Source: Acidimicrobiales bacterium
Lineage (GTDB): Bacteria; Actinomycetota; Acidimicrobiia; Acidimicrobiales; Bin134
Direction: 5' to 3'
DNA: 64,000 bases
Assembly: GCA_965116535.1 (NCBI GenBank)
Contig: OZ220703.1
Location: forward strand, 385,545-449,544
Positions 1-41,817 of this stretch are shown here, piece by piece (positions within the stretch are counted from its first letter, which is position 1; each line of letters starts with the position of its first letter). Made by a program: the position numbers and the translations under genes. A model generated the notes under the pieces. It searched no databases and was not told the DNA's origin. It saw only the letters and a list, made by a program, of their open reading frames with translations.

Positions 1-3000
1 GTCGCCGGCGGGGATGGTCAAAGTGGTCGTGGTGCCCAGCGCGGCGGGCGACGTCGCCCCCGCGGGCGCGCCGGCCTCCACGCCGACCGTGAAGGTGATT
101 GGATCGGCAGAGGTTCGGTCGATGGAGGCGGTGACGGTGGCGGTGACGGCGGCGTCGTCCTCGGGAACCGACGGCCGCGACAGCGTCAGGGTGGCCTTCG
201 GGGGCAAGTCGTAGGCGAACACCTTGTCGCGGACGTTGGAATCGGTGTTGTCGTTGACCACCCACAGGGTGATGCCGTCCGACCAGATTCCCACCGGAGA
301 GTCGTTGTCGGCGTGCAGGGCCAGGTCTTGGCCGGGGTCGTGCTGCCAGGTGATGAGAACGGGGTCGTCGTCGTCTTCAGTCTCTAGGGCCCCGTAGTCC
401 AGCACCATCTTGTAGGCGTACAGCTTCTGGTCGTCGGCATCGGTCACCCACATCGTGCGCCCGTCCGACCAGATGTACTCGGGAGCGTCGTTCTCGACGT
501 GGAGGGGCAGGTCTCTTTCGACGGTGTAGGAGCCGAATTCCGCATCGTACTCTTCGTTGATGTGGTAGGCGTACAGCCTGAGGTCTTCGGTATCGACCAC
601 CCAGATGGTGGTGCCGTCCGACCAGACACCGCCGGGGTTGGCGTTGGCTGAGTCGAGGGCGATCGTGTCAAACCTTCGGTAGGCGCGGTTGGAGAATAGG
701 TAGGCCCGCAGATTTCCTACGTCCTTATCGACTGCCCACAGCGTGGTGAGGTTCGACCACACGCCCTTGTGGACGCCATGCGATGCCAGGGTCCAATCGG
801 AGCTTTCGATGCGCGTGCCGTAGGTACTGCCTTCGGCCACCCCGTAGGCGAACAGCCTATGGGGGCCATCGGACGATGAAACGGGTTGGTCGACCACCCA
901 CAGCGTGGTGTCGTCCGACCACACGCCCCGGGGCCTGGCGTTGTCAGCAGCAAGATTGAAATCGCGGCTGGAGTCGTACCGGCCGACGCCCACCGGCACC
1001 GGCTCGTCGTCGGCCACGAGCAGGGTAATCGGTAGGGGGTTCTTGTCGACGAGTGAGATGCCGGTTGTGACGGTGGCGGTGAAGACCACCGGGCGGGGGC
1101 CGGTGCGGACGGCATCGTCTGATGAGGTGATGGTGATGGGGCTTGTGCTCTCCCCAGCGTTCGCTGCGAAGCTCAGGGTTGTGGAACTCAGCGTCACTGG
1201 CGAGTCGTCGGGCACCGAAACGGTGATGGTCACCGGCCCGTCCACCGTCGGGTCCAAAGTGGCGTACAGCTGCGCGGTGCCCCCGTTCTCGGAGATCTCG
1301 GAAATCCTCTCGCCTGAGGATTCGTCGCGCCTCAGCTTCAGAGTCACCGGGGACGGATCGGCGGTTTCGCGGCTGAACATGTTGTAGGAGTAGATGGCGT
1401 CGTCGCTGCCGCTGGCCACCCACAACGTGTCGCCGTCAGACCAGATGCTGAGCGATTTGTCCGGGTTCGGCGCCTGGCGGGGGCCGTTCTGGCCTACGGG
1501 CCCCTTCTGGTCGGGAGACCCGGAGCGGGAGCCGCCGGCGCCGCCGGCGCCGCCGATGAGGTTGTCGAACTCGAGATCGTCGGTAGCTCCAGTGCCGTCC
1601 TGGCGGGTGCCGTCCGACAGCGCGTAGGCATACAGCTTGTCGTCGGCGGTGTCGGCCACCCACATCACAGTCCCGTCCGACCAGATGCCGTCGGGGTCGC
1701 CGTTGTCGGCCGCGTCGTCGGTGGCGTGATCGGCCAGATCGAACTCGAGATCGTCGGTAGCACCGGTGCCGTCCTGGCGGGTGCCGTCCGACAGCGCGTA
1801 GGCATACAGCTTGTCGTCGCCCGCGTCGGCCACCCACATCACAGTCCCGTTCGACCAGATGCCCCGCGGGTCGCCGTTGTCGGCCGCGTCGTCGGTGGCG
1901 TGATCGGCCAGATCGAACTCGAGATCGTCGGTAGCACCGGTGCCGTCCTGGCGGGTGCCGTCCGACAGCGCGTAGGCATACAGTTTGTCGTCGCCCGCGT
2001 CGGCCACCCACATCACAGTCCCGTTCGACCAGGAGCCCCGCGGGTCGCTGTTGGCGGCGTCCAGAGCGAACCCGGCGCCGGAGTCGTGCTGCTTGGTGTC
2101 GGTGTTGTAGGCGTACAGCGCGCCACCAGCGTCGAGCACGTACATGCGGTCGCCCACGCGGAACAGGCCCCGGGGCTCGTCGTTGGCGGTCGCCAGCACG
2201 GGGATGTCGTCCACTGCCTTCCACTCGCCGGATGAGTCCGAGCCCAAATTGAGGGTGAGCACATAGGTGCGGGTGGCCAAGTTGTCGGAGCCGGTCACCT
2301 TCACCTTGACCGTGTTGGCGCCGGCGCTGAGCGCCACCTGGAAGCCGTTGCCGGCGTCGTTGTCCGCGTCGTCGAGCGTGCCGTCGTCGCCGTCGAGGAA
2401 CGCCACCCCCGCGCTCACGTCCGTCTTCGTCGGCGACACCGTCACCGGCGACGTGCCCGCAGCGAAGCCCGCTGTGTACTCGTGGACATCGGACGCGAAG
2501 GTCGGGCTGAGCACCGCGGGCTGCGAGTCGCTGCCGGTGACCTCGAGCGCTCTCAAGGAGGCGTCCGCCGGTACCGTGACGTCGATCAGATAACGGGCCA
2601 TGGTGCCGTCCTCGGCGGTGACCGTCACCACGATCCCGTTGGATCCCCGCACCAGGCTCACCTGATGGCCGTTCCCCGAATTACCGTCGGCGTCGGCGGG
2701 GGCGAACGAGACCTGCGACGTGGCCGCGGTGGGCTCAGCCGACACCGTCACCGTGTCAGCGCCCTCCAGCGCGGTGGCGATATAGAAAGTCGCGGTCAGG
2801 GGGGTCAGCGTAAGCGGGTTGTTGTAGCCGTCGGTCAGCTCGATGCTGTCGCTCTTGAGCGTGGCGTCGCCGTCGAGCGAGGTGTCGTGGGTGCTGTTGT
2901 AGGCGAACACCTTGGAGTGCTCGGCACCGTCACCGCGGCCCACATAGACCACGCCGCCGTCGTGCCACACACCCCCGATTTGGCCTCCCGAGCCGGTGTG

Positions 3001-6000
3001 GCTCTCGTGCAGACCGATGTCCCATGCCTCGTTGCGGGTTCCGTCGGCCAACTGGAACGCATACAGCTTGCCGTCGCTGTCGTTGAGCGCCCAGATCGCG
3101 GTGCCGTCGGAGGCGATGCCGCGCAGGCTCTCGCCGCTGTCGAACACCTCGGTGAGGCTGATGTCCTTGGCTGAGTCGTGAGCCTTCGTCGCAAGGGTGT
3201 ACGCGTAGATCTTTCGATCTTCAGAGTCGCCCACCCACATGGTGTCGCCGTTGGACCATATGCCCGCAGGGTCGTCGTGGCCCGCGGGCTGGGCGATGTC
3301 CTTGGCCGAATCGCGGTCGCCGTGAACCGGGCCCGCCGCCCCCGCAGCGGTGACGTCGATCTTGTACGCGTACAGCTTGTCGTCGTCGGGATCGGCCACC
3401 CACATCGTGCCGCTCACCGAGTCGTCGCCCGCCACCTCGACATCAGCGAAGACGCCGGCCCCCAGTGCTTCGTTGCCGTCGCCCGTGTTCAGCTCGATGT
3501 CGAGGACGGCCACGCGGCTGCCGTCGGAGCGGTTGAACGCCAGCACCTTGTCGCTGCCGTCGTCGGCCACCCACAGCGTGCCCGCGGTGCCCCACACATC
3601 CCGCGGCTCAATGTTCTCGGTGTCCCACAGGAAGTTGAAGTCGTCGCCGGCGCGCCATTTGCCGGCATCGGCCGAGCCGCGGCCCAGATGCAACGTGTAC
3701 TCGGTGGCCAAGACGCTGTCTGGCACCGACACCCGCACCGTCAACACAGTGACGGTGCCCGCCGCCCCCAGAGCCACCTGATGGCCCGCCGCTCCAGAAG
3801 TGGTGTCGGCGTCGTCGAGGCGGTCGCCGTTCGCGTCGAACACCGCCACCACGACATCGGCAGCATCCGCGGTCGTAGTCCAATCGAGCGTGACCTGCCC
3901 GACATCGCTGTCGAAACCGGCGTGATACACCAAATGATCAGCGGTGAAACCATGCAGCCTGTCGTCGGACTCGCCCGCCGCGGACGCCGACAATGCGGCC
4001 AATTCGGGGGAGGGCAGCTCATCCACCACCTGAAACACGCCCGACAACGCGTACAGCGGCAGAGCCCCATTGCTGGACGCGGTATTCGCATCGAACGCGT
4101 CGCCGGCCGTCTCCGGAGTGCCTATCTGCGCCTCTGGTGCCTTTCCGAGGTATCCGGTCGCGTGCGCGGTGCCGTCGGACGAACAGCCGGTCCAAGCCGA
4201 GGTCTCGCGGCTATTGTCCGCGCCCGAGGTGAACCTCGAAACCAAGCTTTGCCAGTCTTCGGTATAGAACGCCTTGTAGTGGTCGGCGATCTTGGCGCCG
4301 TTGAGCCAGTAGACGGGCACGCCGGTGTCATCGTCGGTGTAGGTGGTGCCGGTGTGGTCGCGTGCGCTCAGGCCCTGGGTGCATCCCAGCACCGTGAACA
4401 GGCCGCCGAACGAACCGACCGCGGCATGGCCGTTAGCGCCGATGTCGGCGCGCACATGGCTGTCGTAGTTGGCGATGGCGGTTGCGGTGGCGTCGCGTTT
4501 GCTGACCGTGAGCGCCAACAGCCGGAACTGGTCGCCGTCGTTCAGCCCCGACGGCGTGAGGGTCCAGCCGTCCGGCACCGCGGTCACGCCTTCGGCCAGT
4601 ATGACGGGTTCACGGCTGAAGGTGACGGTGTAGGTCTCAGTGGTGGTGGTGTCCTGGGCGGTGACGGTGACGGTCACGTCGACGGTGCCGTTCCCGGTGA
4701 GGCCCGACAGGTCCACTTGGTGGCCGCCGTCGGTGTTGCTGCTGTCCGCGGGCGAGGTGACCGCGGCGGTGGCCCTGAGCTGGCGCGCGCTGGCGGCCAC
4801 GGTGACCTCGTCGATGCCTGACGGAACGGTCACCAGCCGCACCGCATCGTTGTCGGGGTCGGCGACCACATCGAGCGTGCCGTCGGCGTGGGTGACGGTG
4901 ACTTTGCCGAGGTCGGCGTTGTCGGACACCGGCATGTTGAACGAATACAGCTTCTGGCCCGTGCCGGCGCCTTTCGGCCTGCCCGCACCGATGGCCGACA
5001 CCCACATCGTCACACCGTCAGACCACAGCCCCGCACGCGTCCACCTCGGCACACCAGCGGTGGTCGTGGCCAGGTCCTTCGCCGCGGCGCGCGACCCGTC
5101 AGCAAGGTTGTACGCGTACAGCTTGTCGTCGCCGTTGGTCTCGTCGGATTCGGTCACCCACACCGTCACACCGTCAGACCAGATGCCCTGCGCGTTGGCG
5201 TTGTCGCCATCCAGGTCAAACTCGCGGTCAGCGCGGCCGTCGTTGCCGTCCAAACGCAATCCGCTGGACAGATCGAACGCATACACCCGATCGGTGTCGG
5301 CATCAACAGTCCACAGCGTCGACCCGTCCGACCACAGGCCCGCCGCATCACCCGCCGCCGCCGGCACGCCGAACGGCTGAAGCGTGCCGTGAGGCGCGCC
5401 CGTCGAGATGTCATAGGGATGCACCCTCGCCGCGGGATCGTCGTAATTCAGCACCCACAGCGCGTCCGCGCCGCGCCACACCCCGTACACCGCCGGGCTG
5501 CACTTGTCATTGCCCGACAACCCGCAATTGCTCAACACCGTCAGCTCGGTGTCGTCAAGCTCCAGATCATCGGTGCCCGAGGTGCCGTCCTGGCGGACAC
5601 CACCAGGCCACGCGTAGGCGAACACCCGATCACCCCAGTCATCGGCCACCCACAGGGTCGAACCGTCCGACCACAAACCACGCGGGGCCCAATTCGTGCT
5701 GTCCAGCCACTCGACGTCATCGACCACCTTCCACACACCCACCTCCGACGACCCCAAACGCACCGTCAGCACATAGGTCTGCGTCGACGTGGTGTCCTGC
5801 GCGGTCACCACCACCTTCACCGTGCTGACCCCCGCCGGCAGCGCCGCCTGCAAACCATTCGACAGATCACCGTCAGAATCGGAGATCGCCGTGTCGTTGC
5901 CGTCGAAGTACGCCACAGACGCGCCGTCGTCGGAGAACACCGGCACCACCGACACCGACGCAGCCGCCGCCACATCCACCGCATAAGCCAAAGTCCCCGA

Positions 6001-9000
6001 CGCGAACCCCGCCACCGCAACGCCCTGCACCGACAAACCCGACAAAGACGCATCCTCCGACGGCGCAGCCGCCCGGGTCACTGTCAGGTTGTAGTCGCCG
6101 GTCGTGGTGCCGTCCTCGGCGGTGACCCGCAACCGCAACTTGTTGGCGCCCTCGGCCAGCGACGACACGGTGTGGGTCAGAATATGGGTGTCCGAGTCCT
6201 TGCCGGCCGAGTCGGCCAGCTCGGACTCGACCTCGCTGGGGGGGACGCCCGTCACCGACAGCAAGGCAACCGTCGCGTTCTCGTGGCCCGCGGTCGCCGA
6301 CACCGCCGCCTCCTCCACGTCATGGCCCACGTTCACCGTGTATTCCAGCTTGTCGGCCGCGAAACCCGGCACCGGCGTGCCCGCCACCGACAGCGCCGAC
6401 AGCGAGGCGTCCGCGGACTGGCGGCGCAGCCTGATCGTATAAGTCTTGGTGGTGCCGTCTTGGGCGGTGACCGTCACCGACACGTCCACGGTGCCGGTGA
6501 CGGGGAGGCTCACCTGGTGACCGCCGTCGACGTTGTTGCTGTCCACCGGCGAGGTGATCGCCGCGGTCGCCTTGAGCTGACGCGTCCCCACCGCCACAGT
6601 GACCTCAGCAACATCGGCAGGCGCAACCGCCAACAACAACGCGTCATCATCCGGGTCAGGCACCACATCCAAAGCGCCGCCGCTGTGAGTGACCGACACC
6701 ATGCCAAGCTCGACATTGTCCGACTCCGGCATCTTGTAGGAGAACAGCTTCTGGCCGACATACCCGCTTGGGCTGCTCCCCGATGCCCTCTCAGCCACCC
6801 ACATCACCTCGCCGTCGGACCAGATCCCCAACGGGAAACTCTGACCCGCCCCCGCCAGCGTGTTGAAGTCCTTCGAGGAGTCGCGGGCGCCCGTGTCCAG
6901 CGTGTACGCGTACAGCTTGTACTCGCTGTTGGTACTGTCGTTCTTGGCCACCCACATCGTGACCCCGTCGGACCAGACACCCTCCGGGTTGGCGTTGTCG
7001 GAGTGCAAGTCGAACTCGCGGCTCTCTCCGTCCTTGCTGTGTTGGCGGGCGCCGTCGTCGCGCGCATAAGCGAACATACGTTTAGAGGACGAGTCAGAGT
7101 TGAGCACCCACATCGTGGTGCCGTCGGACCACAGCGACCGAGGGTCGTTGTTTGACTGCACAAGCTCCAAGTCCGAGTCCGACGCACGGGAGAGGTCCGA
7201 CAGCTTGTACGCGTACGCCTTCTCGCTCCCGGAAGTTAGGGTGTTATGGACCACCCACATGGTGGTCCCGTCAGACCACAATCCCACGGGGTTCGGATCG
7301 CATCGACCTTCGGAGAAAGGACCGCAATCCGCCGCGTCAACCGACAGAGCGGCGCTGTCGAGCTCCTTGCTGGTGTCGCGCTCCCCGTCGGCCCGCGTGT
7401 ACGCGAACACATGATCGGCGGTGTCGTCGAGCACCCACAGCGTGGTGCCGTCAGACCATATGTCGTTCGGAAAGCCGTTGCCGGCCGCCAGCCAGTCCAT
7501 ATCGTCGACCACAAGCCAGCCGAAGGTCTCCGACGACCCCAAACGCACCGTCAACGTATACGTCTCCGTCGACGTCCCGTCCTCGGCGGTCACCACCACC
7601 TTCACCGTGCTGACCCCAGCCGGCAGCGCCGCCTGCAAACCATCCGCGTTGGCGTCCGCGTCGGTGATCGCCATGTCGCCGGCGTCTAAGAACGCCACCG
7701 ACGCGTTGTTGCCGCGGAACTCAGGCACCACCGACACCGAAGAGGCCGCCGCCACATCCACCGTATACGTCAGAGTCGCCGGATCGAACCCGTTCACCGC
7801 CTCGCCCTGCACCGTCAAACCCGACAGGGCCGCATCGTCGTCCAGCGAGGTGGCGAGGGCGTTGTAGGCGAACACCTTGGACCGCGTGCCGTCGCCGCGG
7901 CCCACGTACATGATGTCGTCGGAGAGCCACACACCGCGGATGCTGCCTCCCCCCGTGAGATGGCCGGAGTGGAGGCTGATGTCCCAATCGCTGTTGCGAT
8001 CCTTGCCGTCGATCTCGAACGCGTACAGCTTCCGGTCGTCTTGGTGGAGCGCCCAGATCGCGGTGCCGTCGCCGGTGATTCCCCGCAACTTGTTTCTTTC
8101 GACCTCGCTGGCGATATTGATGTCCTTGCCCGAGTCGCGGTCGCCGTAGTTGGCGCCGGTTTCGAGGGTGTAGGCGTAGAACCTTCGATCATCATCATCG
8201 GAGCGGTCAGAATCGCCCACCCACATGGTGGTCCCGTTCGACCACAAGCCTCGCGGCGTGTCATTCTTGGCGGTGTCTAGGCCGATGTCCTTGCCCGAGT
8301 CGCGGTCGCCGTGGTCCGTGCCCTTCGTGCCGTCGGCGTTGATGTCGATCTTGTAGGCAAAGATATGGTTCTTGCCGTCGTCGGCCACCCATATCGTGCC
8401 ACTCACCGACGAGTTGCCCTCCGCCTCCGCGTCGGTGAAGATCCCGCCGTCGAGATTTTGGTTAACTTCGCCACGGTCCGTAGCCGAGTTCACCAACACG
8501 ATGTCGAGACCCTCCGCCCGTCTGCCGTCGGAACGGTTGAACGCCAGCAGCGTCTTGGTGGTGTCGTCGCCCACCCACAGCGTGGCCTCAGTGACCGCGA
8601 TGCCGCGGGGCTTGATGCCCGCGACGTCCCACAAGTAGTTTATGTCGTCGCCGGCGCGCCAGCCTCCCGCCGCATCCGAGCCGCGGCCCAAGTACAGCGT
8701 GTACGTTCTAGTGTGGGTGGTGTCGGGAACGCTCGTCTTCACCTTGAACGTGTTGAGGCCGGCATTGAGGTTCACCTGGTGGCCCGCCCTGTTGTCGTCG
8801 GCGTCGTCGACGGCGGTGTCGCCGCTGTCAGTCACCGACACTGTGACGCCGGGGTCCGCTGTCCAGGCGATGGTGGCCTGTTCCACACCGTTGTCGAAGC
8901 CGACGTTATACACGTGATGGTCGGGCCTGAAGCCGTCCAGCCTCTCGTCGGACTCGCCTGCCGCGGTCACCGACAGGGGATGCAGATTCGCGGACAAGCC

Positions 9001-12000
9001 CAACCTGAAGACCGGCGAGAGGGCCATCACGGGGGGAATCGGGAAGGGGTCGAGGGGGGTCGTAAGACTGGTGAATGCGTGGATCGGCTCTCTGTCGGTT
9101 TGGCTGTGGGGCGGAATCGCGGTGTGACCCGGATCTCCGTAGATGATGGAGGACGGATTGCCCAAGGGGCTCAACTCATTGGGAAAGCCGTCATTGTCGC
9201 AGCCGGTCCCGACCGCGTACACCGTGGGGTCAGGGTCCTTGGTGCCATCTTCTGGGTCAACAATGACGGGCCAGCGTCCCTCCACCTTGCCATTCACCTC
9301 GCGCACCTCTTTACTGTCCCACCCGCCGTCGTAGAGGTCGGCGTAGTCGTCGGCCACCTTGTCGCCGCCGACCCAGTAGACGCCCACGCCCCGCAAACCG
9401 ACCGCATCGCGGTACTCGGTGCCGGTGTTCGCGCGCGCTGAGACCGTTGCAGTGCAGCCCAGCACGCGGAACCCAGCCGAGTGCGCCCTGAGGCTGGCGT
9501 GTCCGTTGGCAGACACATTGTTCTGCGCAAAAGTGTTGTAGCCGCCGATGGTGTTCAGGGAGGGGTAGGACGGGGGTGAGGTGGTGTTGCCCAGCAGACG
9601 GAACCGATCGCCGAACGAGAGGCCCGGCGGCCTGAGCTCCCAGTGGCCGACAACCTCCACCTCGCCGACGCTCACGAGCACTCGATAGGTCACGATGTGC
9701 CCGTTCGGCGCGGTTGCTGTGACCTCGATGGGCGTGTGGCCGAACGTCACCGCAACCTGGTGGCCGGTCTCGTTCGGGTCGGCGTCGACGGGGGCGATCT
9801 TGAGCCCGGTGCTGCCGGTGCTCAGGGCGGCGGCCACCGTCACCTCGCCGGCGCTTGCAACGGCCGCCTCGTAGTAGGTGACGCCGCCTGTGAACGTAGG
9901 GCTGAGCGTGAGTGCGCTGGAGTCGCTGCCCGTCAGCGTCAGGCTCGAAAGGGCGACGCCGGACGTCGACGTGTCGTGGGTGGTGTTGTAGGCGAAGGCC
10001 TTGGAGGACTCCTCGTCGCCGCGGCCCACGTAGATGACTCCGCCCTCGATCCAGGCGCCGCGGTTCCGGTTGCCCGAGCGCTGGCTGTCGTGCAGTTCGA
10101 TGTCCCAGCCCTCGTTGCGAAGCTTGTTGGCAATCTGGAACGCGTACAGCTTGTTGTCGCTGTCGTTGAACACCCAGATCGCGGTGCCGTCGCCGACAAT
10201 GGCGCGCGGCCGCTCGCTGTCGCTGAACACGCTCGAGACGTCGATCTCCTTGCTTGAGTCGCGGTCGCCGGTTGCCAGCGTGTAGGCGTACAACTTGTCG
10301 TCGCGGGAGTCGGTCACCCACATCGTCGAACCGTTCGACCACAAACCCTCCGGATCGCTGTTGCGCTCCGATGGAGGACTGCTGTCCTCCGACAACACGA
10401 TGTCTTTGTCCAAGTCGCGGTCGCCGTGGGTGCCGCCCGCGGTGCCGTCGGCGTTGACGGCGATCTTGTAGGCGTAGAGCTTGTCGTCGTCGGGGTCGGA
10501 CACCCACAACGTGCCGCTCACCGTGGAATCGGTGCCGTCCTTGACCATGTCGGACCAGATCCCGCCCCACAGCTTGCCGTTGTCGCCGCTCAAGTTGATG
10601 TCGAGGCCCGCCTCCCGGCTGCCGTCGGAGCGGTCGAACGCCCGCACCGTGTTGTCGCTCGCGTCGGCCACCCACAACGTGTCGACCGTGCCCGCCATAC
10701 CGCGGGGCTTGATGTTGTTGACGTTCCACAAGAAGTCGACGTCGTTGCCGGCGCGCCAGCCGCCCAGCTCCGTGGAGCTGACCCCAAGGTGCAGCGTGTA
10801 GTCGCTGCCCACGCCGGAGCCTGTGTCCAACACCCTGACGGTGACAGCGTTGAGGCCCTCTTCCAAGTCGACCTGGTGGTGGTCCTCCATGTCATCGGCG
10901 TCTTCGAGCTCACCGCCGTCTGCGTCGAGGACCGACACTGTCGCGTCGTCGTCGGCAGTCCAGTTGAGCGTCGCCTGCGACACGCCGTCGCTGAAACCCG
11001 CGTTGTAGACGAGGTGGTCGGACGTGAAGCTGTGCAGCCTGTCGTCGGACTCGCCCGCCGCGGTTACCGACAGCGCGCTCAACTGCTGGGACGCCGTGGC
11101 TCTGGAGGTGTTGTAGGCGAAAATCTTGGAGCCGGCGCCGTCGCCGAAACCCACATAGATGGCGCCGCCCTCGATCCAAGCGCCGCGGTTCCTGTTGCCT
11201 GCGCTCTGGTCGCGGTCCAGCTTGATGTCCCAGCCGCTGTTGCGCGCCCCGCCGGCGATCTCGAACGCATACAGCTTTTCGGTGGTCGCGTCGTTGAGCA
11301 CCCAGATGGCGGTGCCGTCACCGACGATGGCGCGACCCCTGCCGTCGTATTCGCCCGAGACGTTGATGTCCTTGTCCGAGTCGCGGTCGCCGTGGTTGGC
11401 GCCGCCGAGGTGGTAGGCGTACAGGTGGTGGTCCCTGCTGTCGCTCACCCACATCGTCGTACCGTTCGACCACAAGCCCTCCGGATCGTTGTTGTCGTCG
11501 TGCAAATCGATGTCTTTGTCCGAGTCGCGGTCGCCGTGGGTGCCGCCCTTTGTGCCGTCGGCGTTGACATCGATCTTGTATGCGTAGATCTTGTCGTCGT
11601 TGTTGCGCTCGGGGTTGGACACCCACATCGTGCCGCTCACCGTGGAGTCGTTGTCGTCCTTGACCATGTCGGACCAGATCCCGCCCCACAACCTCCTGTC
11701 GCTGTCGCTCAAGTGGATGTCGAGGCTCGCCTCCCGGGTGCCGTCGGAGCGGTCGAACGCCAGCACCTTGTTGCTGCCAGCGTCGGCCACCCACAACGTG
11801 TCCGCCGTGCCCGCCATGCCGCGGGGCTTGATGTTGTCGACGCCCGACAGGTAGTGGACGTCGTCGCCGGCGCGCCGGCCGCCCAACTCCCTCGAGTTGA
11901 CCGCCAGGTGCAGCGTGTAGTCACCGCTGAGGCCGGCGTCGGCGTCCAACACCCTGACAATGACGGTGTTGATGCCGGCCTCCAAGTCGACGACTTGGTG

Positions 12001-33327: not shown

Positions 33328-33378
33328 TTGAATTTGTCCTTTCGCTTGGCCCTCGCCCGCCGGCGGGATGCGCTCCCC

Positions 33379-36300
33379 TCAGGTGGTGGCTCGGGTGATG
33401 GTGACGGTGTAGGTGTAGGTGTCGGTGCCGTTGGGGGCGGTCACCTCGATGGTGATGGTGTTCACGCCGGTGGCGAGGTTGACCTGGTAGCCGTCGGTCT
33501 TGTCGTCGGCGTCCTCGGTGACGTCTTCGGTGGAGTCGTCGCTGTCGGCCGCGGTGATGGACACTTCTGAGTCGCCGCGGTCGAAGGCGGCCACCGCGGC
33601 CACGGTGGTGGTCGACACGCTGTTGGCCACCTCGGCGGTGTAGTGGGGTTTGCCGTGGATGAAGTGGCCGAAGTCGACGTCGCTCATCGTCAGCGAGTAC
33701 AGCTTGGCGTTGGAGGGCAGGCTGAACGCCTTGATGCCCGACAAGGGCCGCCTGTCTGGGTCGTCGTAGGGAGCGTCCAGGACCCACATGGTGCGGCCGT
33801 CGGACCACAGGCCGCGGGGGTGGGTGACGCCGTCGAGGCCCACGGGGATGTCCATGCCCGGCATCCGGGCGCCGTCGGCCAGCGCGTAGGCCTCGAGCCG
33901 CGACGTGGCGTCGCCCTCATTCGCGGCGACCCACATGACCGTGCCGTCGGACCACAGGGCGAACGACACCTTGTATCGAAATACGTATCTGGAGTCCCCG
34001 GTGGTGGTGACGGTGATGTCGCGGTCGGCCTTTCGGGCCTTGGTGGCGAAGTCGAACGCCTGGAGCTTGCCCCCCAGAGGCACGCTGTCGTCGGCACGAC
34101 GGCCGTCGACCGAGGCCACCCAGATGGTCTCGCCGTCTGACCACAGGTCTCGCGGCCCCTTGGTGTCGAAGAACGACTCGGCGTCGATATGGGTGGCGGC
34201 AGACGACGCCATGTCGATGGCTTCGATATAGGGATGTTTGATGGACCCGGAGGACCAAGCCTCGGCGATCCACATGGTGTCGCCGTCGGCCCACAGGCCG
34301 GTGTCGTAATTGCTGTGCTCTCTGCTGCGCCGGAGGTCGTGCTGGGACTGGCGGTCCCCGGTGTCGAGGTCGAAAGCGTGCATCGTGAAGCTGGCGGAGT
34401 TCAGGACCCACATGGTGTCGCCGTCGGACCAGATGTCGTAGGGGCCGGTCAATTTCGGCTCGTAGTCGAGAATGCCGTCGAGCAGGTCCTTGGTGGTGTC
34501 GCGCCTGGTGCGCAGCAGGTGCACCGTGTAGACCTTTGCGGGGGAGCCGTCTTGGGGGGCGACGGTGACGGTGACGGCGGCCGGCGCGCCGTCGTCGATG
34601 CTGATCTGGTGCCCGCTGGTGCCGCCGTCGTCGTCGGCGGGCAGCGGGGTGACCGTGGCGTTGGCGTTGCCCGCGGTGTAGGCGACCGTGGTGGTGAACC
34701 CGTCGTCGGACTGGGCGTTGGTGAGCCGGTAGGTGTAGTCGGTGACGGCCGAGTCGAACGTCGGCGACAGCGTCACCCCCGACAGGCTCAGCGCCGACAG
34801 CGTGTTGTCGCTCGACAGGTTGCCGGTGGTGCCGGCGAGGGTGGTGAGCTTGAGCGTGTATTGCATCGACTCGCCGTCTCTGGTCAGCGTGACGGAGATG
34901 TCGGTGACCCCGTCGGCGTCGAGGGTCACCTGGTGGCCCTCGTCGTTGGTATCGGCGTCGCCCGGCGAGATCGCCACCGTCGCGCCGGTGTGGATCGACA
35001 CGGCCTCCACCGTCACCTCGGTGGCATCCGCGGCGATGTTGCGGGCGTAGTCGGTGACCGAGGGGGTGAAGTCGTCGAGGTTCACGCCGCTCACCTCGAG
35101 GCTCCGCAGGCCGTCCTGGACCAGCGTCACCTTGTAGACCTGCGCATACTTGGGCGCCACCAACCGGGAATTCGATTTCAGGGTGATCGTGGTGGAGCCG
35201 TCGGCGTCGAGGCTGAGCCGGCGCTCTTCACCGCCGTAGCGGTACAGGCCCCCGTCGACGGACACCCGGAGATCGGCATCAGTTCCGAACGCCTTCAACG
35301 TCACTTCGGTGAGCTCGGGGGCCACCTTGTAGGTGTACTCCCCGGGGACGGGGCCGAAGCCCGGCACTTCCGCACCGTTGAGATAGAAAGAATGTATGCG
35401 GTTGTCCCAGCCGCTCGGCGTCGGCGGAACCCGAAGTCCCACCTCGTAGACCATCGTCTGGCGGTGGCCGGCGGGGCCTTGGACGACGGTGACGGTGATG
35501 TCGGCGGTGGCGCCGTTTGGGGGGAAGTTCACCTGGTGCCCTTCGGCGACGCCGTCGGCGTCGGCGGGGGTGATGGTGACCTCTGCGTCGGATCGCAGCG
35601 CCTTGGCGTCGATTGTCGCCTGGGTGGTGCCATAGGGCATATAGGTCCAGCCCCCTCCCTCATTGGAGCGCTGGCCCCCCAGCCAGTCCTTGCCGTTGAA
35701 GGCGAGGCGGTGCAGGCGGGCGTCGGCGGGGAGGTTGTAGATGAACACCTTGGTGGTGTCGGCGTCGGCGATCCACAGCTGGGACTGGTCGGACCACATG
35801 GCCAGGGGCTGGTCGTTGTCGTCGGAGAGCCGCTGGGTTGCGTCGGACAGGCGCCGCTTGATGTCCTGGCTGGCGTCCCTTTGGCCGTTGTCGAGGCGGT
35901 AGGCGTAGACCCGGGCGTCGGCGCGGTCCGACACCCACAGGGTCGCGCCGTCGGACCACACCCCGACGGGGTCTTGGTGGGGTCGGCCCGAGGTGTCGAT
36001 GGTCCGCTCGAGGGCCTTGGTGGAGCGGTTGTAGACGTAGATTCTGGCGTCGTCGTTGTCCACCACGTACATGTCCGACGCGTCGGCCCAGATCCCCATG
36101 GGGTTGGCGTTGCCCGCCGCGGACAGCGTCGTGAAGTCCGCGGCGGACTTGCGGGCGCCCGCCTCGATCTCAGGGGTGGCGTCGGAGTCGGCGTTGCGGT
36201 GGTAGCCCAAAATCGCCGCGGTTCCGTCGCTGGCGACCCACACCGTGTCGGCGTCCATCCACAGGCCGTGCGACGTGCCGGCCTGGCTGGGGTTGTCGGT

Positions 36301-37932
36301 GGACGCGGGCAGGTCCAAGTCGATGTCCTTGTCGCTGTCGCGGGCGCCGCCCGACAGCGTGTACGCGTAGATCTTGCCGTCCCAGTCGCCGGTGCTGCCG
36401 CGCGCCGACACCCAGATCGTGGTCCCGTCAGACCAGAACGCCTGCGCGACCAGGTTGTTGGTGGCCAGGTCCGACACGATGTCGTCCGACGCGCCCGACG
36501 CCATCATCCCCGACGCCATCATCATGCCCGACGGTGGGCCCTTGGGCGGCTCGAATGCTTTGCCGCCGCGCACGAGCCTCTGCTGCGCGGCGGCGGGCTG
36601 GATGTCGGTGTCGGCGGGGAACTCGATGAACGCCACCCCGTCGTCGGTGGTGCTCAGCTTGGCCACCGCGTCGGGCCCCTGGGTCAGCTTGGCCGCCGCC
36701 GAGCCCGCCGGCGGCGTCGCCACCAGAACGACCTCGCTGGACAAACCGCCGCCGGCGGCGAACTCGTAGCCGTCGTCGGCCACCGCGCCCGCAAAGGCCA
36801 CCACCGCGTACCGGTACGAGCGGCCCGGCTCAGCGGTGCCGTCGAAGAACTCGTAGCCGGTGCGGCCCCGCTCCCACTCCACGGCGCCCACCACGTCCAA
36901 CGGCGCGCGCCTAGCGCTGTCGGTGCGCCTCACCTGCACGAAGAACACCTCCGCCCACGACGGCTGCTCGGGCACCGTCCAGCTCAGCGCCACCCCGCCG
37001 CCCTGCGCCACAGCCCCCAAACCCCCAGGCGCCACCGGCGGCGCGGACTCCACAGTCACCGCCACCGCATCGGAGAACACGTCGGGCAGACGCTCATGGA
37101 CGCCGTCGCGGAACCTGTGGGCCTCCAGCCCCACCCGATACTCATAGGCCGCGCCCGCCACAACACCGCTGGTGTCGTGGTACCAGGCCTCGCCGGAGTC
37201 CCAATCGATCCCGAAATACGACACCCAGTCCAGCGTCGACCACGCCCCGCCCCCCTCGCGGCGCTCCACAAACATATCGCCGATCGAAAAGTCCCCATAC
37301 CCGTGATCCGGCAAATGCGGCGCCACCCACGCCAGCCGCACCGACCGGTGCGTCGCCGTCGCCGACAACCCCACAGGCGCCAACACCCCCGACACCGCCT
37401 CCTCACCAGGCCGCGCGCCCGACACCGAGAACGCAACCTCCAAAACCCCCAACACCACACCCGACAACCGCCGACCCGAATACGCCACCGCCCGCAACAC
37501 ATACTCCCCCTCCGGCAACGCCCCGCCCGACAACCACCGGGCCGCGCCGTTGCGATAATCCCCATACAGCGAATACGGCGCATAATTCTCCACCTGGGAA
37601 TGCGCCGCCGCCCCGCTCAACTCCAAACCCACACTCCCCACAACCTCGCCAGCCGCCAACTCCACCCGGAACCCATAACTCCCCCCAACCGGATCGCCCA
37701 CCACCACATCCGAACCATCCACCAACTCCGCAACCACCGACTGATCCCCCGCATCCACCACAACAAAACCCGCCAACGGCCCCGCACCCACAACATCGTC
37801 CTGCGCCGCCAAAGGCACCACAGCCCCCGACAACCCCAACACCAATAACAACAACGCCGCGGCAAGCGTCAAAACAACCCGACGGCCACCCGACCAACCA
37901 GCAACAACCCGGAACACCGACCTAACGGCCAT
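33379..37932 (-). CDS. Secreted ~1,517-aa protein, paralog 2 of the preceding gene
   Basis: ORF track 33379..38016. I prefer the ATG at 37932, which gives MAVRSVFRVVAGWSGGRRVVLTLAAALLLLVLGLSGAVVPLAAQ. The upstream 28 codons are AT-richer, include the hairpin CGATGGG-N10-CCCATCG, and abut the conserved intergenic element. The architecture is identical to paralog 1. Confidence 0.9.
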   Translation of the reverse strand: MAVRSVFRVVAGWSGGRRVVLTLAAALLLLVLGLSGAVVPLAAQDDVVGAGPLAGFVVVDAGDQSVVAELVDGSDVVVGDPVGGSYGFRVELAAGEVVGSVGLELSGAAAHSQVENYAPYSLYGDYRNGAARWLSGGALPEGEYVLRAVAYSGRRLSGVVLGVLEVAFSVSGARPGEEAVSGVLAPVGLSATATHRSVRLAWVAPHLPDHGYGDFSIGDMFVERREGGGAWSTLDWVSYFGIDWDSGEAWYHDTSGVVAGAAYEYRVGLEAHRFRDGVHERLPDVFSDAVAVTVESAPPVAPGGLGAVAQGGGVALSWTVPEQPSWAEVFFVQVRRTDSARRAPLDVVGAVEWERGRTGYEFFDGTAEPGRSYRYAVVAFAGAVADDGYEFAAGGGLSSEVVLVATPPAGSAAAKLTQGPDAVAKLSTTDDGVAFIEFPADTDIQPAAAQQRLVRGGKAFEPPKGPPSGMMMASGMMASGASDDIVSDLATNNLVAQAFWSDGTTIWVSARGSTGDWDGKIYAYTLSGGARDSDKDIDLDLPASTDNPSQAGTSHGLWMDADTVWVASDGTAAILGYHRNADSDATPEIEAGARKSAADFTTLSAAGNANPMGIWADASDMYVVDNDDARIYVYNRSTKALERTIDTSGRPHQDPVGVWSDGATLWVSDRADARVYAYRLDNGQRDASQDIKRRLSDATQRLSDDNDQPLAMWSDQSQLWIADADTTKVFIYNLPADARLHRLAFNGKDWLGGQRSNEGGGWTYMPYGTTQATIDAKALRSDAEVTITPADADGVAEGHQVNFPPNGATADITVTVVQGPAGHRQTMVYEVGLRVPPTPSGWDNRIHSFYLNGAEVPGFGPVPGEYTYKVAPELTEVTLKAFGTDADLRVSVDGGLYRYGGEERRLSLDADGSTTITLKSNSRLVAPKYAQVYKVTLVQDGLRSLEVSGVNLDDFTPSVTDYARNIAADATEVTVEAVSIHTGATVAISPGDADTNDEGHQVTLDADGVTDISVTLTRDGESMQYTLKLTTLAGTTGNLSSDNTLSALSLSGVTLSPTFDSAVTDYTYRLTNAQSDDGFTTTVAYTAGNANATVTPLPADDDGGTSGHQISIDDGAPAAVTVTVAPQDGSPAKVYTVHLLRTRRDTTKDLLDGILDYEPKLTGPYDIWSDGDTMWVLNSASFTMHAFDLDTGDRQSQHDLRRSREHSNYDTGLWADGDTMWIAEAWSSGSIKHPYIEAIDMASSAATHIDAESFFDTKGPRDLWSDGETIWVASVDGRRADDSVPLGGKLQAFDFATKARKADRDITVTTTGDSRYVFRYKVSFALWSDGTVMWVAANEGDATSRLEAYALADGARMPGMDIPVGLDGVTHPRGLWSDGRTMWVLDAPYDDPDRRPLSGIKAFSLPSNAKLYSLTMSDVDFGHFIHGKPHYTAEVANSVSTTTVAAVAAFDRGDSEVSITAADSDDSTEDVTEDADDKTDGYQVNLATGVNTITIEVTAPNGTDTYTYTVTITRATT

Positions 37933-38421: not shown

Positions 38422-41400
38422 CTAAACGGCAACGGCCGCAGGAACAGCAGCCGGGGTGATGGAGGCCGAGGTGATTTCGGCACTAGCGCCGAAGCTGTTC
38501 ACCGCCCGCACCTGGAAGGTGTAGCTGACGCCGTTGGTCAGGCCTCCCACGGTGTGGCCGGTGGTGTCGGGACCGCTGTTGGCGATGTCGGTCCAGGGGC
38601 GGTAGCCGCCGCCCGACTCGCTTTGGCGGTACTGCCAGCCGGTGATGGGGCGTCCGCCGTTGCTTCCCAGGACCCAGGTGAGCTCCGCTTGGGTGTCGCC
38701 GGCCTCGGCGTCCAGCATGGCAACGGTAGGTGCGCCGGTCGGGGTGATGGGGGCCGAGGTGGTGGCGGGGCCGGGGCCGAAGGCGTTCACGGCCCGTATC
38801 TGGAAGGTGTAGGTGACGCCGTTGATGAGACCGGATACCACTGCGCCGCCCTCAGCCGACGGCCTCGCCATAGATGTGGCGGTGGTGCCCAGGGCCTCCC
38901 AGGCGTCGTAGGGGCCGTCGCCGCGGCGTTTGCGAACCTCATAGCCCACGATTGAGCTGCCGTTGTCCTCCAGCGGCGGATAGACGGTGATGGTGACCCG
39001 GCCGCTGCCTGCGTCCACCAGTAGCCGAGAAGGAGCGCCCGGCACCCGCCCCGGCGTGGCCGGATATGTCTGGGCGGGAGCTCCGCCGCCGATGGAGTTG
39101 CGGGCCCGCACCTGGAAGGTGTAGCTCTTGCCGTTGGTGAGGGGCGTTTGGGTGCCCAAAAGGGTGGTGATGGTGTGCGACGTGGTGCCGGAACGGCTGT
39201 AGTGAATGTCGGCCCAATTTTCGTCGGCACCGCAGTCTGGGTACGTTCCCAGTGGCGGGGTCTCGCCGCCGCACACCTGCCACCGGATGATGGGCCGGCC
39301 GCCGCTGCCCTGCGACATCCACGACAAGGTGATCTGTTCATCGCCGGGGGTCGCTCTCAGCCCCAGCGGCGCTGGCGGGGCGACCCCCGGCCTGACCGAG
39401 GCCGACACCAGCTCAGGGCCGGCGAGTCCGCCGGCGTTCACGGCGCGGATCCTGAAGTTGTGGGTCACGCCGTTGCGCAGGCCGTCGATGGGGTTGATGT
39501 TGCCGGGGTTGAACTGAGCGCCGGTGTTGCTGTAGGTCCAATCGCTGTAGCGGCCGAATCCAATCCGGTAGGAGTACTCCCACCGGGTGGTGGCGTCGGT
39601 ATTGCCGGTGGTGCCGGTCAGGGACAGGGTGATCTGGGAATTCCCCGGTGAGGCGTTGAGGCTGGGGGCATTGTCGGTGGCGAGGCCGGCGGCGCCCGGA
39701 GTTCCGGGAGCGCCGGCAACGATGGCCGGCGATTGGGTGTAGGTGCCGGGGCCTTCGCCGTTCACCGCCCGAACTCTGAACCGATGCACCGCACCCGCGG
39801 GCGTGGAGGAGGCCACGTCGTAGGTCAACGTGGTTCCGGTGCCTGCGTTCGTCCAGGCGCCCCACGATCCGGTACCGGTACTCACCGCGTACTCGTAGCG
39901 CAAAATCGGGCTGCCGCCTGAGAGCGATGGCCGCCAATTCAGCGTGATGTTGGCACTCGACACAGAGCCGGTGGCGCCTCCGATGTAGACGGCTTCGGGG
40001 GCGGTGGGCACGCTCACCGGGAATTCGGCGCTGGCCGTGACCGATAGCAAGCCGTCGCCGTGGGCATTGACGGCCCGGATCACGAAGAAGTGCTCGCTGC
40101 CAATCGTGAACGCCAATGTGCCGTCGGGGCCGTCGGTGCCGCCTGGAGTCAGCGGGTCCCGGGGCAGAGTGACTCTGTCGGTGGATGAGTGACAGCGCAG
40201 CGCAGGACCGGAGTAGGCGGGAAGGCTGTTGCAGATGTCCACCCAGGAGCTGAGCGAATTGTTGCTCAAGCCGGCCAGGGTGGTGTGGGTTCGGTACTGC
40301 CACCGGGTGATGGGGGAGTCGCCGTCGCCGCCGGAGGTCCACGCCAAGTCCACTTCGGCCGTGCCGGTGGAAACGCTGTAGATGGCGCGGGCGCTGAACT
40401 CAGCCGGCGACGGCGGCCGTGTTCCCAAGTACACCGGATGGTCGTCTTGGAACCCGACATGATCGCTGGCGCCGATGGCGTTGACGGCGCGAACCCTGAA
40501 CCGATACGGCGTTCCCCTGGTGAGGTCGCGAACAATGTGGGCCACTTCGGCAGTGCGAGCGTTGATGTCGGACACCACCATGGGAGCTGCGGGAGGTGCC
40601 CGCACCGGCGCCTTGAACAGGGCGTCGGCGGGAACGGGTATCCACTCGCCGTAGTCGCCGCCATCGGCGCTCACCGAGTACTCATAGCGCACGATCGGGT
40701 TGCCTCCGTTGTTCACTGCGGTGGTGGCCTCATTGAGCGGCGGGGACCACGTCAAGGTGATGGAATCATGGGTGGCGGCCCCCGACAGCCCCGTGGGCGC
40801 GCCCGGCGCCGTGCCGGGGTCGGCCACCGCGCTCTCAGCCGTCGCGCCCTCTCCGCGGGCATTCACCGCCCGCACCTGGAACTTGTATCGCCTCGCGTTG
40901 TCCAAGCTGACCACGGTGTAGAAGGTGGTGTCGGCCCCGCTTTCGGGAATGGCGACCCAGGCCGGTGCGGTTTCGGTAAAGACGCCATCGTCCGTTGTCA
41001 GCCGGAACTGCCAACTGGTGACGGGGTAGCCGCCGTCGCTGCTGGCCGTCCACGACAACGTGACCATCTGGTCGCCCGGAACCGCGCTCAACGAGCGGGG
41101 ACGCCCCGGCACAGTGCCCACCGTGGCTAATGTCGTCTCAGCCGACGCCCCCGCCCCGTTGTCGTTCACCGCACGAATTTGGAACTGATAGCTGGTGCCG
41201 TTGAGCAGCCCGCCCACGGTGTGGTCCGCGGTGGCCGCACCAGACCCGACGATCACAGTCCAGGGGCCATAGTCGCTGCTACCAGTTCTCTGGCGATACT
41301 GATACGAACTGATGGCAGAGAAGCCGTCGGCCGCGGTATCGGCGACCGCCGCCGTCCACAACAGCACCGCCACGGAATTGCCGACGTCGACCCGCAAACC

Positions 41401-41817
41401 AGCAGGAGCGGCCGGAACCGTCGACGGAACAACGTCTGGAGAAGCCGTGGACGCCGCTCCGTTGCCCGCACCGCTCACCGCCCGAACCTGAAAACCGTAA
41501 GCGGTGCCGTTGGTCAAACCAGTGACAGTGTGTCGGAAGGTGTTGCGATGGCTGCCGGGTATCGGAATCCACACATTGGTGGCCGGAGTCGATTGCCTGT
41601 ATTCCCACCGCAGCACCGTGCTGCCGTTGTCGACGCCCGCGGTCCAACTCAGCGTGACCTGCCCATTGCCGGGCACCGCATTCAAGTTGTCCGGGGCCGC
41701 AGGCCCAACCTGCGCTCCCGCAGAAGTCAAAGGGGCCAACAACGCGACAAGCAGCGCCACGCCGCCGAGCGCGGCCCACACCGAACCCCTGCGCGCCCGA
41801 GACCTAGTACTCACCAT
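38422..41817 (-). CDS. Secreted protein made of ten fibronectin type III domains (~1,131 aa)
   Basis: ORF track 38422..41826. A GTG lies at 41826, but I prefer the ATG at 41817 with GGAGA 4 nt upstream. The signal peptide reads RSRARRGSVWAALGGVALLVALLAPLTSAGAQ. Ten repeats each show ...(V/I)TLSWT...W(E/Q)YR... and Y.F(Q/R)(V/I)RAVN..G.G. Confidence 0.93.
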   Translation of the reverse strand: MVSTRSRARRGSVWAALGGVALLVALLAPLTSAGAQVGPAAPDNLNAVPGNGQVTLSWTAGVDNGSTVLRWEYRQSTPATNVWIPIPGSHRNTFRHTVTGLTNGTAYGFQVRAVSGAGNGAASTASPDVVPSTVPAAPAGLRVDVGNSVAVLLWTAAVADTAADGFSAISSYQYRQRTGSSDYGPWTVIVGSGAATADHTVGGLLNGTSYQFQIRAVNDNGAGASAETTLATVGTVPGRPRSLSAVPGDQMVTLSWTASSDGGYPVTSWQFRLTTDDGVFTETAPAWVAIPESGADTTFYTVVSLDNARRYKFQVRAVNARGEGATAESAVADPGTAPGAPTGLSGAATHDSITLTWSPPLNEATTAVNNGGNPIVRYEYSVSADGGDYGEWIPVPADALFKAPVRAPPAAPMVVSDINARTAEVAHIVRDLTRGTPYRFRVRAVNAIGASDHVGFQDDHPVYLGTRPPSPAEFSARAIYSVSTGTAEVDLAWTSGGDGDSPITRWQYRTHTTLAGLSNNSLSSWVDICNSLPAYSGPALRCHSSTDRVTLPRDPLTPGGTDGPDGTLAFTIGSEHFFVIRAVNAHGDGLLSVTASAEFPVSVPTAPEAVYIGGATGSVSSANITLNWRPSLSGGSPILRYEYAVSTGTGSWGAWTNAGTGTTLTYDVASSTPAGAVHRFRVRAVNGEGPGTYTQSPAIVAGAPGTPGAAGLATDNAPSLNASPGNSQITLSLTGTTGNTDATTRWEYSYRIGFGRYSDWTYSNTGAQFNPGNINPIDGLRNGVTHNFRIRAVNAGGLAGPELVSASVRPGVAPPAPLGLRATPGDEQITLSWMSQGSGGRPIIRWQVCGGETPPLGTYPDCGADENWADIHYSRSGTTSHTITTLLGTQTPLTNGKSYTFQVRARNSIGGGAPAQTYPATPGRVPGAPSRLLVDAGSGRVTITVYPPLEDNGSSIVGYEVRKRRGDGPYDAWEALGTTATSMARPSAEGGAVVSGLINGVTYTFQIRAVNAFGPGPATTSAPITPTGAPTVAMLDAEAGDTQAELTWVLGSNGGRPITGWQYRQSESGGGYRPWTDIANSGPDTTGHTVGGLTNGVSYTFQVRAVNSFGASAEITSASITPAAVPAAVAV

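Follow-up and report, generated by a model that had tools for sequence, protein, structure and literature searches.

The locus described here raises two questions: whether six giant, neighbouring genes assembled from one shared set of repeat modules constitute a new kind of bacterial system, and what the proteins they encode might do. The genes, designated A to F, lie on the minus strand within positions 1-41817 of a 64,000-nucleotide stretch from an Acidimicrobiales bacterium (assembly GCA_965116535.1, contig OZ220703.1, positions 385,545 to 449,544 of the forward strand). This whole stretch is referred to below as the window, and positions are given in its numbering. With high confidence, we assign the six proteins to the class of secreted binding-module proteins known as "eukaryotic-like" proteins (ELPs), and the locus is probably a lineage-specific, recombination-prone cluster of such proteins of the kind found in sponge symbionts. 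The class of secreted repeat proteins is thus already known. What is new is the content and the mode of change of the array: its dominant module is a predicted five-bladed, NHL-like propeller undetected by domain databases, a second module has a predicted endostatin fold distinct from DUF1554, a third is a predicted sandwich without family assignment, and the genes evolve as mosaics, with gene conversion and preserved patches, the proteins reaching about 16,000 aa.

Six intact genes with signal-peptide-like N-termini

All six minus-strand open reading frames (ORFs) are intact, neighbouring and co-directional, and together they cover 40,542 of the 41,817 nucleotides, in agreement with the coding share of about 97% given in the first-pass annotation, a reading of this stretch from its letters. 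GC content at third codon positions (GC3) lies between 0.82 and 0.90 in the six genes (0.87 in A), which argues for these frames and against the long antisense shadow ORFs that DNA with 66% GC typically contains. Codon usage correlates between the array and its flank with r 0.97, indicating that the array is native and not a recent import. Pseudogenisation, which the annotation had considered, is not seen in the window; the only frameshifted gene is the B of a sister assembly, described below.

The spacing of the E-D-C group was also as annotated, with 51 nt between E and D and 18 nt between D and C, and with larger gaps of about 350-490 nt elsewhere (365 nt for C-B, about 350 nt for B-A and 405-489 nt for F-E). 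The AT-rich patches reported between the genes correspond to an intergenic GC content of 54-61%, as compared with about 66% within genes. The four transcription units suggested in the annotation (F; E-D-C; B; A) are putative; in a promoter and terminator scan of 37800-42700, site counts were no better than in shuffled sequence.

Judged by inspection, each of the six N-termini shows the pattern of a Sec-type signal peptide, namely a basic n-region, a hydrophobic core of 12-20 residues and an AxA-type site, and the export signals proposed for all six proteins were upheld on this basis. The open frame of A runs from 14532 to 1, and alternative starts at 14484, 14493 and 14514 add a basic n-region. 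No further hydrophobic 19-mer (Kyte-Doolittle above 1.8) occurs in the six proteins except for one marginal window in A (1.82), and in B the sole hydrophobic segment comprises residues 10-25. Pfam searches of the six proteins found no enzyme, toxin or secretion component and no RTX repeats, and there are no type 1 secretion genes adjacent, the sole ABC transporter of the window being a Liv-type amino-acid importer; SLH, LysM or other wall-binding domains were found with neither Pfam nor NCBIfam. An LPXTG sortase signal, consisting of a C-terminal motif, a hydrophobic segment and a basic tail, is absent from B-F, and the single LPxTG pattern of A (residue 2652) is internal to a domain and so is no sorting signal. 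The earlier description of the array as free of enzymes, toxins, sortase signals, transmembrane anchors and secretion components therefore stands, for A as far as its sequence extends within the window. Proteins A-E are very acidic, with Asp and Glu making up 14-16% of residues.

A shared vocabulary of modules

Hidden Markov models (HMMs) were built from the window's own repeats, iterated, and then used to count the modules (Table 1). Blades of the WSDG type number 75 and fall into 15 groups of exactly five (nine groups in A and two each in C, D and E). They are accompanied by 26 cadherin-like domains (14 in A, two in B, five each in D and E), 21 fibronectin type III (FN3) domains (five in B, two each in C, D and E, ten in F) and seven GPLAGF modules (two in B, three in C, one each in D and E), the latter matching their own HMM with E 1e-58 to 1e-67. 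The three DQFRLL modules, of about 210 aa each, are all in A; the two leucine-rich repeat (LRR) blocks are both in B, each followed by a cadherin-like domain; and the two von Willebrand factor A (vWA) domains are both in C. Every count that the first-pass annotation had given for the WSDG five-fold units (9+2+2+2), GPLAGF (2+3+1+1), DQFRLL (3) and vWA (2) was reproduced. In the usual arrangement, a WSDG propeller is followed by one to four cadherin-like sandwiches.

Pfam recognises PF12733 in A, D and E, LRR and fn3 in B, fn3 and two vWA domains in C, and fn3 in F. The scores for PF12733 are 316 bits in A (13 stretches), 96 in D and 101 in E, against a gathering cut-off of 24.2, and PF12733, PF13855 and PF00041 all exceed their curated Pfam cut-offs in array proteins. 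LRR_8 matches B in 17 stretches (E 4e-117). The first vWA domain of C (Pfam VWA, 67 bits) has an intact metal-ion-dependent adhesion site (MIDAS) motif, DDSGS, at residue 1172; the MIDAS position of the second is degenerate (DETRS).

Some segments fall outside these modules. Two of them in A (residues 4378-4507, positions 940-1329, and residues 4774-4820, positions 1-141, both minus strand) look by eye like Ig-like or Calx-beta-like repeats (...ITFTVGV...TLTIPAGD); neither has a Pfam match, and the first, of 130 aa, is also without an NCBIfam match. Gene A evidently continues with further module types past the window. In B, residues 2355-2660 (15890-16807, minus strand) form a cysteine-containing segment of 306 aa that matches nothing in Pfam (E<=1), NCBIfam (E<=0.1) or the local module HMMs.

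A five-bladed propeller outside the domain databases

On the evidence of profile matches and a structural model, the WSDG unit is predicted to be a five-bladed, NHL-like beta-propeller. The blade number is exactly five in 57 units across 76 homologues, as it is in 15 of the 15 local units. Searched in isolation, the unit matches no Pfam family at E<=1 (including PF01436, NHL) and no NCBIfam family at E<=0.1, and PF01436 does not match the whole array proteins either. Against PDB sequences, a profile of the unit found the NHL-derived Pizza6 (E 2e-6) and also NHL repeats, SMP-30 and Vgb lyase. For modelling, sandwich and propeller were aligned together as two domains, leaving out isolated long propeller units, which misaligned over the sandwich. 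The resulting AlphaFold2 model of residues 379-762 of C has a mean predicted local distance difference test score (pLDDT) of 88, and consists of an eight-strand sandwich followed by five blades. With this model Foldseek retrieved NHL domains at E 1e-10 to 1e-11, and the best global superposition was on five-bladed glutaminyl cyclases (TMt 0.72-0.76 for the best matches; 3mbr: TMt 0.76, root mean square deviation (rmsd) 3.4 A). In the viral library, the best matches were uncharacterised marine phage and baseplate proteins of 15-25% identity. A literature search on "WSDG" found nothing relevant.

The six-bladed NHL propellers (TRIM71/Lin41, Brat and the designed Pizza6) are alike in blade sequence pattern as well as in the profile and Foldseek matches, and Lin41 likewise pairs an Ig-like sandwich with its propeller. 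However, the WSDG unit has five blades instead of six, has no PF01436 match, and is tandemly reiterated in proteins that are apparently extracellular. The plant/bacterial-type glutaminyl cyclases (3mbr, 3nol, 2iwa) have the same blade number and superpose with TMt 0.67-0.76 and rmsd 3.4-5.4 A over about 245 columns, but are only 10-11% identical to the WSDG units. The presence of nine copies in one protein favours a binding module over an enzyme.

An endostatin-like module and an unassigned sandwich

The third copy of the DQFRLL module, modelled by AlphaFold2 with 58 sequences (pLDDT 96.7, predicted TM-score 0.92), is predicted to adopt the endostatin fold of collagens XV and XVIII. In a Foldseek search of the PDB, its significant matches are only to the endostatin domains of these two collagens (1dy0, 1koe, 1dy2 and 1bnl; E 1.7e-6 to 6.6e-5, probability 1.00, TM 0.59-0.71), with C-type lectin domains in the tail of the list. 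At the sequence level, the three copies match no Pfam family at E<=1, including PF06482 and PF07588, and no NCBIfam family at E<=0.1; sequence-profile searches of the PDB with the DQFRLL and GPLAGF modules gave nothing credible. Homologues of the module are mostly small stand-alone hypothetical proteins of 170-390 aa, and among 69 of them there is no precomputed PF06482 or PF07588 match.

With endostatin, the NC1 domain of collagen XVIII/XV, the module appears to share fold and extracellular context, but it is only 12-15% identical. Bacterial endostatin-like adhesins have been described in Leptospira, where the Len proteins (DUF1554, PF07588) bind fibronectin, laminin and factor H according to a secondary account (PMC2387172, citing Stevenson 2007). 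The DQFRLL module differs from the Len proteins in having no PF07588 match, and from both Len and endostatin in that three copies are embedded in a giant protein between cadherin-like domains.

The GPLAGF module, modelled in its second copy in C, is confidently predicted to be a beta-sandwich of eight strands (block pLDDT mostly 84-98). It has no match in Pfam (E<=1), NCBIfam (E<=0.1) or the sequences of the PDB, and its fold family could not be assigned, as the Foldseek results for the two-domain model, in the PDB and viral libraries, were dominated by propeller matches.

Strain variation and mosaic evolution

The first-pass annotation could not match the organisation of the array to a described system, and suggested looking for recurrence of its gene order. 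The six-gene order does not recur in related genomes. The impression of an unmatched organisation was not sustained either, as the array belongs to the known ELP class of sponge symbionts, and related metagenome-assembled genomes (MAGs) commonly have two to five paralogous propeller/cadherin-like genes in a co-directional row. In a sister assembly (ena:ERZ25072196:ctg194526_13x_l, 3.66 Mb; L068 403440-427993, corresponding to 14815-38788 of the window), F-E-D-C are 99.7% identical to the genes described here. B in that assembly lacks one G at window position 23338, and the resulting frameshift causes it to be called as three genes; its LRR segment 22724-21476 cannot be aligned, and the remainder is 95.9% identical. 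The place of A is taken by a 1455-aa fn3 gene.

Related genes occur in several other settings. The sister assembly has a second E/D-like pair (the P0003 pair; L001 10001-19033) 1.4 Mb away, again spaced by 51 nt and flanked by NUDIX and CysS genes, and one relative has a single D/E-like copy in a third context. On OZ220692.1 (L069 14989-22973), a C-like gene precedes a small sCache-like gene, after which comes an A-like gene with a called length of 15,945 aa, all among unrelated neighbours. On OZ220724.1 (L051), an A-like ORF, uninterrupted and at least 7039 aa long, fills a 21-kb locus; it includes five or more endostatin-like modules, and its segments 91-97% identical to A are found in different order and copy number. 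The array is thus not a conserved or co-evolved system; it is a lineage-specific cluster that varies between close strains.

Genes D and E have the same architecture and are 89.9% identical over 1498 aa (BLASTP), but as a mosaic in which blocks of 98-100% identity alternate with patches of 48-78% (cadherin-like domains 1-2 and blades 1-3 of the second propeller). When the two pairs are compared, D resembles the second gene of the P0003 pair and E the first. Within a type, the variable patches are 93-100% identical, versus 53-80% between types, while outside these patches the N-terminal two-thirds of each gene is about 100% identical within a pair. The occurrence of two types in two pairs, together with homogenisation within each pair, indicates that a two-gene cassette was duplicated and then underwent gene conversion with the patches being kept. 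Persistent type-specific patches would be expected if they carry different specificities. Taken as a whole, the array has grown by tandem and segmental duplication, module shuffling and gene conversion.

Homologues, host and habitat

Protein D is identical to the public protein P0001, present on contigs of 3.70 and 3.66 Mb. No exact match to B is on record, and the proteins returned by a search with the last 444 aa of A are all shorter than 800 aa. Scanning one genome per GTDB species with a query made of the propeller and cadherin-like C-terminus yielded 496 relatives, the best of which are on OZ220724.1 (96%) and OZ220692.1 (93%), both "MAG: Acidimicrobiales bacterium". Further relatives are found in MAGs of Ca. 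Poriferisodalis, Ca. Poriferisocius, Ca. Spongiisociaceae, Ca. Aldehydirespiratoraceae, Dehalococcoidia, Tepidiformaceae, Limisphaerales and Pseudomonadales, and relatives of the modules in sponge-symbiont MAGs span four phyla. Among 1.84 billion representatives, the propeller profile matched 14,291 clusters (50% identity) at E<=1e-3 and 2,363 at E<=1e-30. The nearest relatives of the host, itself a member of the Acidimicrobiales, are probably MAGs of sponge symbionts, and a sponge habitat is likewise probable for this genome.

For the Acidimicrobiia that live in sponges, a statistical enrichment in cadherin (including PF12733), LRR, fn3 and Calx-beta domains is on record (PMC11706023), and proteins of a sponge symbiont with cadherin and fn3 domains have been seen by metaproteomics in Ianthella basta (PMC10947273). 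The domain classes counted as ELPs there include cadherin (PF00028/PF12733), LRR, fn3, Calx-beta and NHL (PMC11706023). The NHL family (PF01436) was reported as not enriched in ELP censuses (PMC11706023). The array proteins agree with the ELPs of the sponge-symbiont census (PMC11706023) in belonging to the same bacterial order, in sharing the same Pfam domains (PF12733, PF00041, PF13855), and in being exported, multi-copy, variable and distributed over several phyla. They differ in that 75 propeller blades and two other modules are invisible to the Pfam lists used in such censuses, and neither of these studies (PMC11706023, PMC10947273) describes giant size or a tandem array layout.

What the array might do

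The first-pass annotation had proposed a surface adhesion or ligand-capture locus. What stands of this proposal is the binding repertoire: the proteins are apparently secreted, enzyme-free, multi-module and eukaryote-like in composition, the first vWA domain has its MIDAS motif, and the whole agrees with the published enrichment (PMC11706023). The status of a new system does not stand. A role in host adhesion can be put forward with moderate confidence. In such a scheme, the six giant proteins would be exported by Sec, their signal peptides would be cleaved, and the proteins would then be released or stay loosely associated with the wall. Their strings of autonomous modules (propellers, cadherin-like domains, GPLAGF sandwiches, FN3 spacers, LRRs, the vWA domain with its MIDAS, and the endostatin-like module with its C-type-lectin fold) could bind ligands multivalently, with sponge extracellular matrix, cell-surface glycoconjugates or other cells as the likely targets. 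As a consequence, the symbiont would be retained in the host, or its recognition by host cells altered, or both. The Len adhesins of Leptospira provide a precedent for the endostatin-like part of this scheme. Long strings of Ig-like, cadherin-like and vWA domains, presumed to mediate multivalent adhesion, also make up the giant adhesins of Gram-negative bacteria that use type 1 secretion with RTX repeats (LapA, SiiE, MpIBP) and the LPXTG adhesins of Gram-positive bacteria; the array proteins differ from these in their N-terminal Sec signals and in lacking C-terminal RTX repeats and type 1 genes or, in B-F, an LPXTG motif, transmembrane segment or charged tail.

Several observations weigh against an adhesive role in a sponge host. 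No wall or membrane anchor was found in B-F, so that display on the surface is putative, and the C-terminus of A lies beyond the window, where it could carry an effector or an anchor. Whether homologous loci are common and have an assigned function was a point raised by the annotation, and the two halves come apart: homologues are common, but none has an assigned function, their names being only "hypothetical", "cadherin domain-containing" and "PQQ-binding-like beta-propeller". Some MAGs that carry the modules have no obvious association with a host (Glaciecola, Planctomycetes, marine Verrucomicrobia), and the sponge origin of the genome rests on the names of its relatives and not on sample metadata.

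The same modules could instead serve nutrition, with propellers, cadherin-like domains and GPLAGF sandwiches acting as lectins or carbohydrate-binding modules that hold polysaccharides or glycoproteins of the sponge or the seawater while the degrading enzymes are encoded elsewhere. Lectins are found among five-bladed propellers (tachylectin-2, for example), the endostatin fold is a member of the C-type-lectin-like superfamily, with which the C-type lectin tail of the Foldseek matches of DQFRLL is consistent, and the proteins are very acidic, like many calcium-dependent binders. Bacterial cadherin domains have moreover been reported to act as carbohydrate-binding modules (Fraiberg 2010, 2011, as cited in PMC10947273). 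However, glycoside hydrolases, lyases, sulfatases and a matching transporter are all missing from the array and its immediate surroundings; a conserved sugar-binding motif was not identified; and LRR, FN3 and vWA domains are more typical of protein-protein adhesion. We regard capture of glycans for nutrition as unlikely.

It is less probable still that the proteins are structural, forming an S-layer-like coat or a matrix for inter-bacterial aggregation or biofilm without a specific host ligand. Strings of FN3 and Ig-like domains are common in envelope and matrix proteins, and the array proteins are large, repetitive, acidic, exported and represented by many paralogues per genome. However, no SLH, LysM, LPXTG or other wall-binding domain was detected with Pfam or NCBIfam; the presence or absence of A and the frameshift in B at the strain level speak against an essential envelope component, and the retention of type-specific patches despite gene conversion looks like variation in ligand specificity. 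Very improbable, in our view, is that A is a scaffold for effector delivery, as in polymorphic toxins or contact-dependent competition, with its active domain past the window and the smaller genes as accessory or decoy paralogues. The unseen C-terminus of A, the length of A-like genes, which reaches 15,945 aa, a size range shared with some toxin-delivery giants, and the difference between strains in the gene at the position of A would fit such a role, but B-F are complete and end in binding modules, toxin and immunity genes are absent, the 4820 aa of A within the window contain no RHS/YD, haemagglutinin or pre-toxin domains, and no small immunity-like ORFs follow the genes. A cluster of secreted binding proteins of the ELP class, directed at the host, is the explanation that we favour.

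Other features of the locus

Directly upstream of F, the array abuts a pair of plus-strand tRNA genes, tRNA-Asp(GTC) at 42333-42408 and tRNA-Phe(GAA) at 42421-42496, and a 157-aa ORF overlapping them (42310..42783) is spurious. An Rfam scan of the window found these two tRNAs and nothing else. A genomic island or recent import at the tRNA pair was considered and rejected, given the codon usage correlation with the flank (r 0.97) and the absence of an integrase from the window. Ordinary genes of metabolism and transport occupy the 42-64 kb flank (2-oxoglutarate oxygenases, the Liv-type ABC importer, a major facilitator superfamily transporter, oxidoreductases), together with, in a patch of lower GC on the plus strand at 56024-58626, an N6-adenine methylase with a XamI-type restriction endonuclease. 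The GC3 of this restriction-modification pair is about 0.65 versus 0.8-0.9, and it looks recently acquired.

Three upstream elements were noted from sequence. Two copies of a direct repeat of about 29 nt (GAGACATGATGTTTTCCTAAT[G/A]GCAATAT) stand in tandem at 41993-42042 (minus strand), about 180-220 nt upstream of the start of F and adjoining the only sigma-70-like match (41954-41983); a regulator may bind there. The regions upstream of E (38019-38155, minus strand) and B (24050-24185, minus strand) share an element with 67% identity over 138 nt (E 1.7e-6), which may be a common promoter or leader and is absent upstream of the P0003 and P0005 homologues. Directly before the TTG/ATG start of B, at the position of the ribosome-binding site, there is a run of 11 G (23874-23884, minus strand), a candidate slipped-strand, phase-variable tract or sequencing hazard, which shows no difference in the sister assembly.

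Table 1. Genes of the array and positions of their modules in the window (P5, five-blade WSDG unit; CADL, cadherin-like domain; DQF, DQFRLL module)
Feature	Position	Strand	Length, order or basis
Gene A	1..14460	-	at least 4820 aa; no stop codon as far as base 1, C-terminus outside the window
A, module order		-	CADL-DQF-CADL-[P5-CADL]x3-DQF-CADL-[P5-CADL]x2-CADL-CADL-P5-CADL-DQF-CADL-P5-CADL-CADL-P5-(130 aa)-P5-...; own HMMs
A, nine propeller units	12136-13044, 11014-11829, 9925-10710, 7801-8613, 6682-7476, 4885-5691, 2830-3609, 1330-2181, 142-939	-	blade HMM, 45 blades
A, DQFRLL module 1	13423..14064	-	own HMM/alignment; endostatin-like fold predicted via model of copy 3
A, DQFRLL module 2	8986..9654	-	own HMM/alignment; endostatin-like fold predicted via model of copy 3
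A, DQFRLL module 3	4003..4602	-	copy modelled with AlphaFold2
Gene B	14813..23869	-	3018 aa; signal peptide (by inspection); Pfam and own HMMs
B, LRR block 1	21710-23692	-	
B, CADL	21353-21700	-	
B, FN3 x4	19286-20413	-	
B, LRR block 2	17165-19192	-	
B, CADL	16808-17155	-	
B, unassigned	15890-16807	-	306 aa
B, FN3	15608-15889	-	
B, GPLAGF x2	14819-15598 (15200-15598, 14819-15208)	-	own HMM
Gene C	24235..28788	-	1517 aa; signal peptide (by inspection); Pfam and own HMMs
C, FN3 x2	28045-28659	-	
C, GPLAGF x2	27238-28047	-	first copy 27658-28047 (own HMM); second copy 27238..27648, modelled
C, P5	26518-27195	-	
C, GPLAGF	26158-26556	-	own HMM
C, P5	25399-26088	-	
C, vWA1	24832-25290	-	Pfam VWA, VWA_2
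C, vWA2	24238-24771	-	Pfam VWA, VWA_2
Gene D	28807..33327	-	1506 aa; signal peptide (by inspection); Pfam and own HMMs
D, GPLAGF	32848-33243	-	own HMM
D, FN3 x2	32191-32826	-	
D, P5	31129-31893	-	
D, CADL x4	29926-31158	-	
D, P5	29092-29877	-	
D, CADL	28810-29130	-	
Gene E	33379..37932	-	1517 aa; architecture as in D
E, GPLAGF	37414-37809	-	own HMM
E, FN3 x2	36751-37386	-	
E, P5	35686-36450	-	
E, CADL x4	34498-35715	-	
E, P5	33664-34449	-	
E, CADL	33382-33702	-	
Gene F	38422..41817	-	1131 aa; signal peptide (by inspection)
F, FN3 x10	38455-41703	-	Pfam fn3 E 1.6e-64, 7 stretches; own HMM 10

Implications for sponge symbioses

Surveys of the symbiosis factors of sponge microbiomes are based on counts of Pfam domains. 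As three of the modules described here go undetected by Pfam and NCBIfam, the exported binding repertoire is probably larger than these counts suggest, and the hidden propeller family could bear on the published report that NHL is not enriched. A tentative extension, possible though on balance doubtful, is that the WSDG propeller together with the cadherin-like domain represents a large unannotated family of secreted proteins that crosses phyla, is exchanged among sponge symbionts (Actinomycetota, Chloroflexota, Verrucomicrobiota, Pseudomonadota) and serves as their main device for recognising the host matrix. In the Acidimicrobiales it would be joined by a bacterial mimic of the endostatin of animal basement-membrane collagen, displayed by proteins that reach about 16,000 aa and keep their specificity patches distinct despite gene conversion.

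The DQFRLL module is a new candidate mimic of animal extracellular matrix, in a symbiosis that ranks among the oldest between animals and microbes. The Len adhesins offer an experimentally supported precedent for it. The three modules are small and have high predicted fold confidence, making them practical reagents for binding assays on sponge matrix and cells, and such assays would make what ELPs bind a testable question.

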